In this document: one piece after another, positions 2,405 to 36,111 of the stretch
How the letters are laid out: each line of letters begins with the position of its first letter
Position numbering within the stretch: the first letter of the stretch is position 1
IMG/VR virus record: IMGVR_UViG_3300028048_001497
Location: 110,541-174,540 of that record
DNA from: a virus
Lineage: Duplodnaviria > Caudoviricetes
Length of the DNA: 64,000 nucleotides
Direction: 5' to 3' (one strand)
Program-made: the position numbers and the translations under genes
Notes under the pieces: model-generated
What the model saw: only the letters and a program-made list of their open reading frames with translations
Told to the model about the DNA's origin: nothing
Databases searched by the model: none

Positions 2405-2779
2405 CGTAAGATAAGACCCCCACTTCTAAGCTACGAGGTAGCCGTTAGGCTACCGAGTAACGAAAGTGGGGGATGACTAATACTAACTCTTGACTATTTT
2501 TACAAATAGTGATACAATTAAATCAAAGGAGGTAAAACAAAATGCTAAAAGCGTACAAATTCAAATATCTTGAATGAAGGTAAAAGGCTACTAAAAGTAG
2601 CCTAAACCATATAAAAACTGTACCGTAGGGCTTACGGAATCAGTATAAAACTAAGCCTATGGAGATTGTGTAAGACGTAAAAATGTATGGCTACGCCATA
2701 CCTCATGCGGTTTCACCGCATACGCTACGGTCTGAGAAGTAGGAATCCCCCCACCTCTTTAGGTGGGGGAGGATGTCAA
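2405..2779 (+). mobile_element. Non-autonomous IS200/IS605 (tnpB/IS1341-type) mini-element, copy 1: tnpB internally deleted, omegaRNA region retained
   Basis: Follows TTTAT. Left-end hairpin ccccactt...aagtgggg; SD+ATG 2542 gives MLKAYKF (TnpB N-terminus) joined to NILNEGKRLLKVA* (TnpB C-terminus, other frame); right end ggaatccccccacctctttaggtgggggaggatgTCAA; near-identical to 33004..33378. Confidence 0.85.
2490..2518 (+). promoter_or_regulatory. sigmaA-type promoter inside mini-element copy 1
   Basis: TTGACT-N17-TACAAT with extended TG; conserved in copy 2. Confidence 0.7.
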
Positions 2780-6300: not shown

Positions 6301-9300
6301 AAATACCTGATTTAATAAAAAAATCCCCATTATTATCACAAGCATTTATGTTTGTAGGCCAACATCCATTTTTAACATTGGCAGGTGGTTTGGTAGGATG
6401 GTCATTATTAAAAAATGGTGCTAAACACGTTTTTAATTTTGCAAAAGAAAAAGCATTTGGTCATTGGAATGATGTAAAACATAAAGATGTAACAGACGAA
6501 GTTAAAGAAACTACACCGTCTGAAACAAAAACATTAAAAGAAGAAACCCCAAAATTAAACAATAATAAAGGTTTCTTTAATAATATGAAATCCAGATTAG
6601 CGGATTGGAAACCAAAGTCATTTAATAGTAAATCATTATCTAGTTTAACAAAGAAAATCCCACATAAGGGATTGATGGGTGTTGTTGGAACAGGTATGAC
6701 ATTAGGGGCTATGTTATTGGGAAGTTCTTCTAGTGCTTCTGCAAATCCTTCTGAACAGGGGGACGAGAATCAATCAGAAGAACAAGATGATGAACAAAGC
6801 ATAAATTCTATGTATATTATGTTCAAAACTGGTAATTCAAAAGTTACTTTCTATAACAAAGACGGTAAATTAATTGATGTAACAGGAAGAACAGGCATTG
6901 AATCGTGGTTAATGCAAAATGGATTTAGTTTGTTTAGTGCATTAACTGTTGCTACTGCTGCAGGTGCTAGTGGAAAATTTGCATATGACAAACTTAAACA
7001 GTTTAAAGAAGCAAAATTTCCAAAATTTCCTAGTGTAAAAATGCCAAAAGAAATATCTGAAAAAGATATACAAAATACAGAAAAATTAGCTAATCCATCA
7101 ACAAAACCATCAATGCTAGATGCAACTCTTACTTTTTTGGGTTTAAAACCGGGTTCTGAAAAAGGTAAACCAAAAGGAAAAGAAAAATTATCTGAAAAAG
7201 AAAAAGTACCAAAAGAAAGTAATTGGTCTAAATGGGGTGGAAGATTATTTAATTTCCTTACTGTTGCTGGTTCAGTTGGTAGTGAATTATTATCTGATGA
7301 TGATAGAACAACAGGACAAAAAGTTGTAGCAGGTGGAATAGAAGCAGGTACGGAATTAGCTACATATAAAGTTTTGGATAAAACAGTAGGTAGAATACCG
7401 TATATTGGCAAACCATTAGCTTTATTATTGCCTTTTGCTGATTCTTTATCAGGTACTAATATAATGTCTAAAATATCAGAAAAAGCAAAGGCATTTGCAG
7501 GTGTACAGGCTAAATATAAATCTGGTAATGAAATGTTCCTTGATGCAATGAATAATCAAACAGGAATGACAGGTGCAAGTTTTGAGAAATTAATTCATTC
7601 TGAAACTGCGCAAGGTAATTATTTTAGAAGTTATTTATCTGCAAACGGTATTGAATATGACAAATTAAATGAACAAGAAAAATTATTCTTTAAATTGCAG
7701 ATGGATGAATTAGCATTTGTGCAACAAAGTGTTGCTAAAGTTCTTGCATTAGCTATTATTGCATTAAAAAATGCACAAATATCAGGTAATTTTAATTTAA
7801 ATGATGATGACGATTCTATCTTTAAAAAAGATGGAAAGAAATTAAAAGATGATATTATTCAAAAAATAAAACAAGATGCTCAAGATTCATTTCCAGAAGG
7901 TGGTCATGATTTTGAGAATATTAATCAAGCTGCACATTTTGTAAAATATGGTCAACGTTTATATGAAAAATTAAACGATGAAGGGTATGATTCTGAAAAA
8001 TTAAATCAATTAGCAAGTGCGATTACTTATGCTAAATATAGCGTTTGGGCTATGAATGGTTTTCAAGATTATGATTTGGATTATTATGGAACAACATGGA
8101 CAATTACGAACCCATATGAAGATGATTCTTCTGATAGAACTGAAAGCGAAGATATTGCAGATACCACCTATTCTGGAGGTATAACACCGGTACTTAAAGA
8201 AATTTGGGATAGGTGTCATGGAAAATCTTCGGAAGAAATATCTCGTGAACAAGCTCAAAAAATTAAAGAAGATTTACAAGAACAGTATGGCGAAACAATT
8301 GCAGAACAAATATCAAGTGGATATAATAATTTAATTTTTGCTGGTTGGGTTGGTCCTGTAAAAAAACAATATATGACTGAATATGCACAAGAAAAAATGG
8401 AAAATCCTGATAATATGGAAGATGATACACAACAAAATTCAAATCAAGCTCCAGATTTTTCAAATGCGAATGCTGGAGCATATGCAAGTATGGTAGAACA
8501 AGCTAAAATGATTTCTCAATTAACTGGTTTACCAGCAGATATAATATTTGCGCAATTAGCATTTGAAACAGGTCAAAATCCATCTGATATGGCATATTCT
8601 GATAAAATTCATAATTATGGTGGGACTACTGTTGATATGGGGCATGGAAAAAATGATAGTGGCTTTGGTATTTATGTAAACAATAAAGAGGGCGCAGAAG
8701 CATATGTAAAAGGTACAGTCCCAGTTAGAGACCAATTACCACAATTAAAGGAAGCAATCGCACAAGGCGATTTGAAAAAATATGTACATTTATTAAAATA
8801 TGGTATGGAAGAGTCTGGTAAAGGAAATTATCAATATTTTACTGGCGATGAAAATGAATATTTAAATGGTATAATGTCTTATTTATCATTAGCTCATAAA
8901 TTAGGATTGAATGGTGTAACACCTAATGGTACATTTAATTTTTCAAATTATACTCCTAGAACTTTAAAAGAACAAAGTGATAAAGCATGGGAAGATTATA
9001 GAAAAGCAGTTGGGAATGGAAAAAAAATAAGCGGTTATTTGGTCAATGGTATTTACATTGATACAAGTAGGCAATATCAATCTGTTGAAGAACAAGGTAA
9101 AAAATTACGTGAAGCTATGAGGGATGGTTCTTATTATACAGACCCACAAAAAGTATATCAAGAATTAGACGAACTAAACAAGAAAAATGCAAAGAAAATT
9201 GTTGAAGATACTAATACTCAAATCAAAAAACAACAAGAAAGTCAAAAACAAATACAAGAAATGGCAAAAAAAGAAGCAGATGCAAAAAAACAACAACAGG

Positions 9301-32981: not shown

Positions 32982-33003
32982 TTGTTGACAAAACAGTTTT
33001 TAT

Positions 33004-33378
33004 CGTAAGAGAATACCCCCCCACTTCTAAGCTACGAGGTAGCCGTTAGGCTACCGAGTAACGAAAGTGGGGGATGACTAATACTAACTCTTGACTATTT
33101 TCGCAAATAGTGATACAATTAAATCAAAGGAGGTAAAACAAAATGCTAAAAGCATACAAATTCAAATATCTTGAAAGAGGGTAAAAGGCTACTTTTGGTA
33201 GCCTAAACCATAAAAAACTGTACCGTAGGGCTTACGGAATCAGTATAAAACTAAGCCTATGGAGATTGTGTAAGACGTAAAAAGGTATGGCTACGCCATA
33301 CCTCATGCGGTTTCACCGCATACGCTACGGTCTGAGAAGTAGGAATCCCCCACCTCTTTAGGTGGGGGAGGATGTCAA
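33004..33378 (+). mobile_element. Non-autonomous IS200/IS605 mini-element, copy 2
   Basis: 375-nt near-identical repeat of 2405..2779; preceded by TTTAT, ends TCAA; ATG 33143 gives MLKAYKFKYLERG*. Confidence 0.85.
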
Positions 33379-33398
33379 CCTATATAATAAAGATACTA
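33180..33398 (+). ncRNA. Putative TnpB omegaRNA scaffold plus guide, copy 2 (boundaries approximate)
   Basis: As copy 1; guide would begin CCTATATAATAAAGAT. Confidence 0.65.
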
Positions 33399-33519: not shown

Positions 33520-33777
33520 ATGGCTTTTGCAGATAATAACAATTCACTCTATGAAAATTCAATGAAGCAGTCAGATGTCAAGGAAACAAAGTTTTCTCTC
33601 CTAGAAAACAAGAAAAGTGGTAAGCTAACTGCAAGTATTCGTGACTTCAAACATACAGAAGGGTATGATGGTCCTACTCGTAATGGTATGATGCTACAGA
33701 TGAATACAGTAGAAGATGTAGAGAAATATCAGAAAGCATTTAATGACTTCTTTGAAAAAGTTAAAGAGTTTTTCTGA
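33520..33777 (+). CDS. PC4-like ssDNA-binding protein
   Basis: AGGAGG RBS with ATG 33520; SIRDF...GPTRNGMML matches the PC4 pattern. Confidence 0.6.
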   Translation: MAFADNNNSLYENSMKQSDVKETKFSLLENKKSGKLTASIRDFKHTEGYDGPTRNGMMLQMNTVEDVEKYQKAFNDFFEKVKEFF

Positions 33778-33833: not shown

Positions 33834-34211
33834 ATGCCTAGACGTAAATTAACAGAAGAAGAAAAAAGACAAAAATGGAAAAAACAAATGTGTGAAAAAA
33901 TCCTTAATAATGAAGAATTAACGATTACACAAGTTGCTAAATTAGTTCAAAAGAAATCTGTTACTATTCGCAAGTGGGAACAGTTAGGAATTGTGCATAA
34001 GCCTAGGATTGTAAATAAAGTCCGTAGATATAATGTAAAAGAATTATGCACTTTTATGCATGATTTGTTGCAGTATAATTGGACATATAAAACAATAGAT
34101 ATGGAAATGATACAACAGATAGCGGATTATTTGGATTCCATTATTGCATTACAACCAAAGAAACGTATTATTAAAAAAGACCCATATTCTTTCGATGGGG
34201 ATTTGTATTGA
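33834..34211 (+). CDS. MerR-type HTH DNA-binding protein
   Basis: LTITQVAKLVQKKSVTIRKWEQLGIVHKPR...RRY. Confidence 0.75.
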   Translation: MPRRKLTEEEKRQKWKKQMCEKILNNEELTITQVAKLVQKKSVTIRKWEQLGIVHKPRIVNKVRRYNVKELCTFMHDLLQYNWTYKTIDMEMIQQIADYLDSIIALQPKKRIIKKDPYSFDGDLY

Positions 34212-34221
34212 GGTGAATAAG

Positions 34222-36111
34222 GTGGTACAACTTGATTTAGATAATGTATATCTAAAAATCACAGGATTGACAAAAGAACAAGAAATTAAATTATGGAATG
34301 AATTGTCGTTCGGTATTCAAATTTATGGTGTACCTGAAATCAGGTATCGTCATTTGTTCAATCGTAAGACAAAAAAGACATACGCAGGATTATTTGATTA
34401 TGTCAAAGACTTCTTTGATACGAACGAGATAGATTATAAATTAAATGATAATCGTGTAAAGCCTGAACAAAATGCTAATTTTCAATTGGTAGATTATATT
34501 GATAGTGATAAAAAAGTTCCTTTAAAATTAAGACCTTATCAACAGGATATTGTTGATAAGTGCAGAGAACGTGAGGTAATACAAGCCTGTACTGGAGCGG
34601 GAAAAACCTTAATGATGGCTGCTTGTATTGCTAAATTCAATGTAAAACCTGTATGTATTTTTGCAGATAAAATTGGATTATGTATGCAATTAAAACAAGA
34701 AATGGAAAAGTTTCTTGGAGTAGAAGTTGGTTTGGTTGGTGATGGGGTAGAAGATTATAAAGACATTACTGTAATTTCTACACAATCAGCAGATGATAAC
34801 TATATCAAAGACGCAAAAATGTGTTTGTGGGATGAATGTTTGCCATATGATACAGAAATTTTGTTAGAAAATAGAACCTGTATGAAAATTGGTGACATTG
34901 TAAAACAAAAACAAATGGTAAATGTATGGACATATAATGTTTATACACATCAATTTGAAGTCAAACCAATTATTGACTTTGGCGTTACAGATATTGGAAC
35001 AAAGAAAATATTAAAGTTAAATATTAAACGTAATGATGGAAAAAATATTGTTTTACATTGTACAGATAATCATAAAGTTTTTATTAAAAACAAAAATGAT
35101 TATGTTCGAGCAGATTGTTTAAATATTGGCGATAAAGTTGTTGTTGGAACAGTTGAAGCATTAATATTGAAACAATATGAAGGTACGATTGACAATATTG
35201 AAGTAGATAATTCTAATGCAGAGAATTATGTATATGATTTAACTGTTGCAGACAATCATAATTTTATTGCTAACGGTGTATTGGTATCAAATTGTCACCA
35301 TATACCTGCCCAGACAATTACTACAATTGCAAATAAATGTAAAAATGCTTATTATAGAATTGGTGTATCGGCAACACCTTGGCGTGATGCAGGTGATGAT
35401 TTGCTTATCGAAGCAGTTCTTAATAAGAAAAAAGACGCAGTTATTACCGCTTCTATGTTAATTGAAAAGGGATATTTGGTAAAACCAGAAATTTATTTTG
35501 TTCCAATAAAGCAGGTTTTTAAAGGGAAAAATTATCAAGATATATACAATAAAGCTATCGTGGAAAATACAGATAGAAATAAAATTGTAGCTAAAATTGC
35601 TTACAATATGTATATACGTGATAAACACATCTTAGTTTTATATAAAAATATTAAGCACGGAGAAATTTTACGTGATAGAATTACTAAGAAGATTGGTGAA
35701 AAAGCTAAATCATTTACTGTTACAAATCCTAAAAATAATCAAGATGTAACCATTCGTGTACATAATGTTGAAATGTTGTCTGGTAACGATGATACATTAA
35801 AACGTCTTGCGGTATTTAAAGCAGTTAAAGAAGGATTTTGCCGTTGTTTAATTGCATCAACGATTGCAGATGAAGGATTAGATTTGCCAATTCTTGATAC
35901 ATTGATTTTGGCAGGTGGAGGAAAATCTTCTACTAGGGCTTTTCAACGTATCGGTCGTGTGATAAGATTATATAAAGGAAAAACAAAAGGAATAGTATTT
36001 GATTTTACGGATTATACGCCTATGTTGCGTAGACATTCTCGTAATCGTCAGAAATATTATTCACAAGAACCGTTATGGGACATCCATAAATTCAATGTAA
36101 ATCCTGATTAA
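34222..36111 (+). CDS. SF2 DExH helicase (UvsW/XPB-like) containing a mini-intein
   Basis: LRPYQ, TGAGKT, DE[intein]CH, SATP, EGLDLP, QRIGRVIR; likely GTG start 34222 after GAGGTGA. Confidence 0.9.
   Translation: MVQLDLDNVYLKITGLTKEQEIKLWNELSFGIQIYGVPEIRYRHLFNRKTKKTYAGLFDYVKDFFDTNEIDYKLNDNRVKPEQNANFQLVDYIDSDKKVPLKLRPYQQDIVDKCREREVIQACTGAGKTLMMAACIAKFNVKPVCIFADKIGLCMQLKQEMEKFLGVEVGLVGDGVEDYKDITVISTQSADDNYIKDAKMCLWDECLPYDTEILLENRTCMKIGDIVKQKQMVNVWTYNVYTHQFEVKPIIDFGVTDIGTKKILKLNIKRNDGKNIVLHCTDNHKVFIKNKNDYVRADCLNIGDKVVVGTVEALILKQYEGTIDNIEVDNSNAENYVYDLTVADNHNFIANGVLVSNCHHIPAQTITTIANKCKNAYYRIGVSATPWRDAGDDLLIEAVLNKKKDAVITASMLIEKGYLVKPEIYFVPIKQVFKGKNYQDIYNKAIVENTDRNKIVAKIAYNMYIRDKHILVLYKNIKHGEILRDRITKKIGEKAKSFTVTNPKNNQDVTIRVHNVEMLSGNDDTLKRLAVFKAVKEGFCRCLIASTIADEGLDLPILDTLILAGGGKSSTRAFQRIGRVIRLYKGKTKGIVFDFTDYTPMLRRHSRNRQKYYSQEPLWDIHKFNVNPD
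34837..35292 (+). mobile_element. Mini-intein (152 aa, no endonuclease) in the helicase Walker B motif
   Basis: Starts CLPYDTEI, block B CTDNHKV, ends VYDLTVADNHNFIANGVLVSN followed by Cys; removal restores DECH. Confidence 0.92.

Follow-up and report, generated by a model that had tools for sequence, protein, structure and literature searches.

Elements of the IS200/IS605 family excise without a scar, and TnpB homes on the donor joint (PMC10055086). PATEs often encode omegaRNAs that must act in trans (Meers et al., PMC10055086), and TTTAT is the documented TAM of one such nuclease, the TnpB2 of ISGst2 (PMC10055086). For phages, non-restorative homing has been treated in general terms in a review (PMC13565253). 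Here we describe a copy of such an element inside a consensus promoter of a large phage, together with the parent element, the empty sites of relatives, and further insertions of the same family.

The window, i.e. the whole stretch of DNA analysed (64,000 nucleotides), comprises bases 110541-174540 of a 174.5-kb IMG/VR virus record (G000), which has a G+C content of 29% and an estimated completeness of 35%. Relatives with the same PC4-like gene extend up to 416-504 kb, indicating that the source is a giant phage; its coding density is 92%. The window contains three perfect TTGACA-N16-18-TATAAT sites, compared with 0.18 expected, an excess that is not due to chance. The whole record contains eight perfect sites, all of them on the + strand and all with a 17-nt spacer; the one at 98.4 kb lies within a further tnpB element, as its internal promoter. 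The excess of perfect sites indicates that the phage plainly uses host sigma-70-type promoters, and that the promoter reconstructed below belongs to the same class.

Insertion site within a phage promoter

The features that define the insertion are as follows.

32985..32990, + strand: −35 hexamer TTGACA of the split phage promoter, with intact homologous promoters in L030 and L031
32999..33003, + strand: TTTAT target, the left cleavage site and predicted TnpB TAM, located in the flank outside the element and also present in the L030 empty site
33004..33378, + strand: mini-element copy 2, a 375-nt non-autonomous IS200/IS605 element (PATE)
33383..33388, + strand: −10 hexamer TATAAT of the split promoter, without a −35 partner when the site is filled
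33520..33777, + strand: 85-aa gene with a PC4/Pur-alpha-like fold, the first gene downstream
2405..2779, + strand: mini-element copy 1, 96% identical to copy 2, located after TTTAT and 4 nt before TGATATAAT

The −35 hexamer is followed by 13 nt, the last bases of which are TTTAT. The element ends in TCAA (GATGTCAA) and is followed by CCTA and then by the −10 hexamer. In-silico deletion of 33004..33378 produces an exact TTGACA-N17-TATAAT, and the reconstructed empty junction reads ...CAGTTTTTAT/CCTATATAAT... (the slash marks the junction here and below). The earlier note had claimed that removal of this segment joins the two hexamers with a 17-nt spacer and that the join fixes both ends of the element. 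The sequence confirms the former, and the ends are fixed in addition by copy 1, the full-length copy, further copies, and the empty sites of relatives.

Related loci were fetched via the downstream 85-aa gene. The homologous upstream ORF of L030 (96% protein identity) precedes an insert-free TTGACA-N17-TATAAT, in which the spacer reads ...GATTTAT/CTTA ahead of the −10 box and TTTAT is in the same register as in the window. In L031 (81% identity), a TTGACA-N18-TATAAT is located at the same place, directly after the homologous upstream ORF. The reconstructed promoter thus has an uninterrupted counterpart in each of the two closest relatives, verifying that the split site is a real consensus promoter; the distant relatives L032 and L033 have another arrangement, from which this promoter is absent. 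The claim thereby withstands the check set in the earlier note, for which an empty site unlike the reconstructed promoter would have counted against it. Comparison of the filled allele with the empty allele (L030, TTTAT/CTTA) reveals no target-site duplication, and in 10 of 12 copies the left end directly follows (T)TTAT. About 12 further copies share both boundaries, including the GATGTCAA right end, amid unrelated flanks. By these alignments, the element is placed 3′ of TTTAT, without duplication of the target, in the spacer of a real sigma-70-type consensus promoter ahead of the 85-aa gene.

Both G001 and G002 are empty at the copy 2 site, and the filled allele was seen only in the source lineage; exact searches of IMG/VR with the reconstructed empty site and the unique right flank yielded no same-species contig. 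Because the relatives are empty and the copies are 94-97% identical, the copy 2 insertion is evidently recent and lineage-specific.

The homology of copies 1 and 2 stops at the same bases. The copy 1 site is empty in G001, where it reads ...AAATTAT/TTCA-TATAAT, and both minis of the window share the landing site TTAT-NNNA-TATAATA. If the boundaries were mis-set, or the join a coincidence, the element would include the TATAAT that follows TCAA, and the promoter obtained by joining the flanks would be spurious, a reading for which one could cite the 8 identical bases (ATATAATA) that follow TCAA in both minis after a 3-nt gap. However, the full-length copy and more than 20 other copies diverge after TCAA, and the relatives have TATAAT at both empty sites without any element. 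These observations rule out TATAAT as part of the element and make an artefact extremely improbable; the −10 boxes beside both minis are, on this comparison, evidently the phage's own.

Anatomy, parent copy and mobility

The mini-element comprises the following parts.

33018..33073, + strand: left-end subterminal hairpin, stem CCCCCAC...GTGGGGG with a nested hairpin (DNA fold z = -3.9)
33091..33119, + strand: the element's own promoter, TTGACT-N17-TACAAT with a TG extension, which reads towards the PC4-like gene and is kept in full-length and mini copies
33143..33184, + strand: tnpB stub of 13 codons behind its RBS, identified by comparison with the parent 370-aa tnpB
33163..33378, + strand: predicted omegaRNA scaffold region, from the tnpB 3′ end through the right end, defined by covariation and RNA fold
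33346..33369, + strand: right-end hairpin CCCCCACC...GGTGGGGG, followed by AGGATG
33375-33378, + strand: TCAA, the right cleavage site

The left-end compound hairpin is 56 nt long. The hairpins at both ends share the CCCCCAC/GTGGGGG stem and are subterminal and imperfect, and terminal inverted repeats are absent. The tnpB stub consists of the first seven codons (MLKAYKF) and then continues across the deletion junction at ~33162/33163, out of frame, to a stop. On the 3′ side of the junction, the final bases of tnpB lead into ~190 nt of non-coding sequence and then into the right-end hairpin. The terminal 18-mer GGTGGGGGAGGATGTCAA is found in 24 IMG/VR contigs, with different bases after TCAA in each.

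In a 15-copy alignment of the omegaRNA region, 11 of 48 predicted pairs show compensatory changes, e.g. GCGG with CCGC versus GTGA with TCAC, and CCGTA with TACGG versus CCGCA with TGCGG; compared with shuffled sequence, the RNA fold of the region has a z of -6.65. An Rfam search of the element returned none at the gathering threshold, only weak matches to HgcC (E = 0.016) and CRISPR-DR9, and a BLAST search against INPHARED phages returned one partial match. The segment 33163..33378 thus has the features expected of an omegaRNA scaffold, with expression and processing inferred. The hairpin ends, fixed left target, lack of duplication and TCAA right end bear out the earlier assignment of the insert to the IS200/IS605 type, and the consensus match and the covariation-supported scaffold agree with its prediction of an internal promoter and an omegaRNA. 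The element keeps both ends, lacks a transposase or nuclease gene, and occurs in several copies at different sites; by its structure it is an IS200/IS605 derivative and a PATE in the sense of Meers et al.

A full-length copy, with the same ends around a 370-aa ORF, is located on the minus strand of the record at ~91.9-93.4 kb, outside the window and ~50 kb upstream of copy 2 in the same phage. The encoded protein (L005:604-1716(-)) matches the Pfam families HTH_OrfB_IS605, OrfB_IS605 and Cas12f1-like_TNB, and ISDra2 TnpB structures (8bf8/8exa/8h1j) align with it along its entire length (E = 9e-84). Its RuvC-type motifs DLGIK, IAxExL and HDRDxNA line up with a close designed relative of the parent TnpB. 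The Pfam domains and the ISDra2 alignment together identify the RuvC motifs and zinc ribbon of a TnpB, and we infer nuclease activity for the parent copy. Comparison of the parent with the minis points to an origin of the mini by internal deletion from this tnpB-only element. The full-length copy is flanked on the left by TTAAA rather than TTTAT, which leaves some doubt as to whether parent and minis have compatible TAMs.

Three further observations concern the parent copy. The base 5′ of its left hairpin is T, while most of the compared copies have A. The copy (L005 ~430-1853) lies antisense within a multi-domain gene with repeats of the FGxLTV...RWLCxC...GGRGI type. It also replaces 425 nt that are present in G001 (L034:232-656), which indicates an adjacent deletion between two TTTTTAAA-type sites; since the 425 nt next to the insertion are missing from G000, G001 is uninformative on the left boundary of the parent.

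Further family members were sought by exact-word scans of IMG/VR and one metagenome series. Minis at two unrelated sites (L042 and L043) have the same deletion junction as those of the window, ACAAATT/CAAATATCTT, which brings the total to four sites. A second junction type (L041 and L045) lies between a 13-nt near-repeat at the RBS and the tnpB 3′ end, and a third is found in L038. The existence of several junction types, one of them at four sites, indicates that minis arose several times and that at least one lineage moved. Clostridia of the rumen and gut (Butyrivibrio, Sharpea, Acetitomaculum) widely carry the core motif of the omegaRNA, mostly in a subfamily with different ends; this subfamily, the right end of which finishes in TTCAC, was left out of the insertion-site statistics.

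Y1 TnpA (PF01797) has no match in the 174.5-kb record, which is 35% complete. A TnpA was found in one relative only (G001), as part of an element whose left-end hairpin differs from that of the minis. A cognate TnpA encoded by the host is possible. As the search turned up no cognate TnpA, mobility and excision in the present-day phage are putative. The G001 element (G001:C1 ~14.8-17.1 kb, L034/L184) is of another IS605 type, encodes a 158-aa Y1 TnpA and a 543-aa TnpB-like ORF, and has inserted into the gene next to the one that, in G000, contains the parent copy.

Two sites carry unusual repeats. At L041, the left flank of the mini (~6345-6378 in element orientation) contains the direct repeat GAATGAATAATTTTATC and GAATGAATAATTTTAT/CGT, which looks like a duplication of the target region beside the left end. 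In G001, a relative without minis, a perfect 42-nt palindrome, TTGACATCCTCCCCCACC-TCTTTA-GGTGGGGGAGGATGTCAA, is located ~3.8 kb upstream of the PC4-like gene (G001:C1:61026-61067, L185/L035). Its right half equals the last 33 nt of the mini-element, and the palindrome could be a right-end relic or a recruited hairpin.

The phage is heavily colonised by OMEGA elements, with four TnpB-type ORFs, an IscB, two minis and a solo left end. The four TnpB-type ORFs (open frames of 372-414 aa) are outside the window, at ~1.5, 39.7, 92.2 and 99.4 kb of G000:C1, and the one at 98.4-99.6 kb stands behind a perfect consensus promoter. A complete IscB system at 57476-58991 (+) represents a second OMEGA nuclease type in the same phage, consisting of a HEARO RNA (Rfam RF02033, 124.6 bits, 57476-57705) followed by a 434-aa ORF with RRXRR and HNH domains (57687-58991). 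At ~52362-52500 (+) lies the solo left end and promoter of a second IS605 family: TTTTTAT, a hairpin CCCCGCCC...GGGCTGGGG, and then TTGATA-N17-TATAAT-ATAAACAAAA. Almost the same sequence precedes tnpB in L050, whereas here there is no tnpB behind it.

Association of the family with promoters

To survey the family, we took 12 independent insertions with both junctions defined, joined their flanks, and sought a junction-spanning promoter. The promoter-associated insertions are as follows.

Window copy 2: split in the spacer of a 12/12 promoter
L041: split in the −35 hexamer (T/TGACA) of a 12/12 promoter
L040: split in the −10 hexamer (TAT/AAT) of a 12/12 promoter
L037: TTGAAA-N17-TAT/AAA, a 10/12 promoter, with the geometry of L040 and unrelated flanking genes
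L036: 8 nt after a perfect promoter
Copy 1 and L045: abutting TATAAT boxes

Perfect promoters are thus split in three of the 12 insertions (copy 2, L041 and L040), each cut at a different position. All promoter-associated insertions are co-oriented with the flanking genes. The remaining five of the 12 are outside promoters, and the junctions range from −35 to ~+2. With the elements in place, a perfect promoter is straddled at 0 of 1963 TTTAT sites in G000 and at 1 of 1146 in the fetched loci. In a second null, the elements were deleted in silico and the split promoters were counted as available sites, giving 2 of 2711 TTTAT sites, 10 of 6625 TTAT sites, and at most 9 of 972 among sites outside ORFs. 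Across the null models, the probability of three or more perfect promoters among 12 ranges from 9e-8 to 2e-4, and that of four or more at 10/12 or better is ~1e-3 to 5e-3. The excess of insertions in consensus promoters is large, despite the test being small (n=12) and post hoc.

Such an excess could arise from active targeting, e.g. of single-stranded non-template DNA at busy AT-rich promoters, which would make this a promoter-homing element of giant phages. The three perfect splits and the one 10/12 split, all co-oriented, with a probability of at most 2e-4 even against non-ORF TTAT sites, would fit this proposal, as would the shared TTAT-NNNA-TATAATA site of the two window minis. However, five insertions elsewhere and junctions spread from −35 to ~+2 argue against one melted target, and selection acting on a promoter-bearing element in a 92%-coding phage predicts the same pattern; furthermore, a literature search found no paper reporting such targeting for IS200/IS605. 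We therefore regard active targeting as rather unlikely, and we favour selection over mechanistic targeting as the cause of the excess: a co-oriented element with a strong constitutive promoter and no terminator does no harm chiefly where a promoter of that kind was already in place.

In a broader version, the family would be a lineage specialised on consensus sigma-70 promoters of giant phages that lands there, or survives nowhere else, in the direction of transcription, substitutes its own promoter, and spreads through co-infecting phages by omegaRNA-guided cutting of the allele with the intact promoter. This version is unlikely; were it true, the element would act as a promoter-replacing gene drive, and excision could also re-tune early gene expression.

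As far as the present data show, the element in itself is a PATE of the ordinary sort and adds one more member to a known class. What is new here, and worth following up, is the promoter excess of the family, of which our literature search on IS200/IS605 insertions found no report. Should a larger census bear out the enrichment, promoters of large phages would be regularly turned over by IS605/TnpB elements with guides automatically aimed at competitors' promoters, which would bear on phage-phage competition and on the recruitment of TnpB guides for transcription control. The locus also provides a clean natural filled/empty pair, in which the remnant of an RNA-guided-nuclease transposon sits in a phage promoter while the nuclease gene resides elsewhere in the virus.

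The filled state and probable retention of the insertion

Two additional features bear on the filled state.

33379..33394, + strand: predicted 16-nt guide CCTATATAATAAAGAT, which includes the −10 box, deduced from the TnpB/omegaRNA architecture (PMC10055086)
33784..33822, + strand: intrinsic terminator with a 13-bp stem, directly after the PC4-like gene

In the filled allele, the old −35 TTGACA and GAGAAT in the left end (33009-33014) form a 10/12 hybrid promoter with an 18-nt spacer, and the internal promoter of the element is a 10/12 consensus with a TG extension, promoter strengths being expressed here as consensus matches only. The right end offers no −35-like partner to the orphan TATAAT (33383-33388), and no + strand terminator was found inside the element. 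With two promoter candidates and no internal terminator, the 85-aa gene is most likely still transcribed, behind a leader of more than 400 nt that would contain the complete omegaRNA.

The AF2 model of the 85-aa protein (pLDDT 89.8) has four strands and a C-terminal helix, and its best Foldseek matches are Pur-alpha, the phage T5 PC4 homologue 4bg7, and PC4 (TM 0.5-0.63, weak E-values); searches of Pfam and PHROG gave no match. The model thus suggests that the "PC4-like" label holds at the level of the fold only. Beyond the terminator are a MerR-like gene, an intein-containing helicase, an AAA ATPase and a DnaB-like helicase. The intein-containing gene (34144-36111, +) encodes a ResIII/Helicase_C helicase with an intein splicing domain at residues ~240-383. 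The earlier description of the split site as the promoter of the replication module is overstated, because with the strong terminator right after the PC4-like gene, control of the module would need read-through.

The earlier note further proposed an excision-controlled switch. On this reading, scarless excision by TnpA would restore the strong promoter, and the phage would thereby regulate the PC4-like gene or the replication module. By the known logic of the family, excision would be scarless (PMC10055086); it would rebuild the perfect TTGACA-N17-TATAAT, and the filled allele alters both the 5′ leader and the identity of the promoter. However, the filled allele is young and confined to one lineage, with empty relatives and nearly identical copies; TnpA was not found in the 174.5-kb record, and that of G001 belongs to an element with another left-end hairpin. 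TnpB and the omegaRNA would presumably eliminate the ON (empty) allele, two promoter candidates and no terminator are present in the filled state, and the terminator behind the 85-aa gene limits the reach of any control. We consider a switch highly improbable, and the regulatory-switch idea is unsupported.

Taken as a whole, the locus is probably best explained by a recent PATE insertion that is kept and spread by TnpB homing while the gene is still transcribed, with the promoter excess as part of the same explanation. Transcription of the 85-aa gene would start at the TTGACT-N17-TACAAT of the element and at the hybrid promoter, and would run through the omegaRNA into the gene. The same transcript would supply the omegaRNA, with the flank after TCAA as guide. 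Specifically, the guide CCTATATAATAAAGAT beside a TTTAT TAM would match the restored promoter, and TnpB provided in trans by the parent copy may cut genome copies or co-infecting sister phages in which TTTAT adjoins the guide flank, the cut target being the restored promoter allele. The break would be repaired from the filled copy, which would be abundant in the replicating phage pool. The insertion would thereby be kept and spread to co-infecting sisters, with no toggling and no stable second state. As for its position, a co-oriented strong promoter without a terminator would be tolerated mainly where such a promoter had stood. We also considered whether copy 1 could have given rise to copy 2 by guide-directed homing and rejected this, as the guide matches at no more than 8 of its 16 positions and the three nearest the TAM are all mismatches.

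Among known systems, the ISGst PATEs of Geobacillus stearothermophilus are alike in having hairpin ends, no protein gene, a retained omegaRNA and TnpB in trans, and ISGst2 is alike in its TTTAT TAM and target (PMC10055086). In contrast to the ISGst PATEs, the element described here resides in a giant phage, keeps the tnpB promoter, RBS and first codons, and sits inside a consensus promoter. TldR proteins, nuclease-dead TnpB-derived repressors that bind promoters, likewise involve a TnpB-family guide complementary to promoter DNA (PMC10705468). Unlike TldR, however, the TnpB here keeps its RuvC motifs, the guide fits the promoter only through the element having landed there, and the filled allele has no TAM next to the target.

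The resemblance to ISDra2 of Deinococcus radiodurans extends from the parent TnpB, which aligns end to end, to the omegaRNA, which spans the tnpB 3′ end and the right end and takes its guide from the flank. The TAM of ISDra2 is TTGAT, whereas the TAM predicted here is TTTAT, and the element here is tnpB-only, without tnpA. IS608 of Helicobacter pylori shares insertion 3′ of a short target, the lack of duplication, and subterminal hairpins; as here, TCAA forms the last bases of its right end and GAAT lies immediately 5′ of the hairpin at that end. It differs in its TTAC target and in carrying tnpA. Finally, the homing endonuclease genes and mobile introns of T4-like phages are alike in the predicted cutting of the element-free co-infecting allele and in copying by recombination, but here recognition would be by an RNA guide and a TAM rather than by a protein, and the insertion lies in a promoter rather than in a gene.
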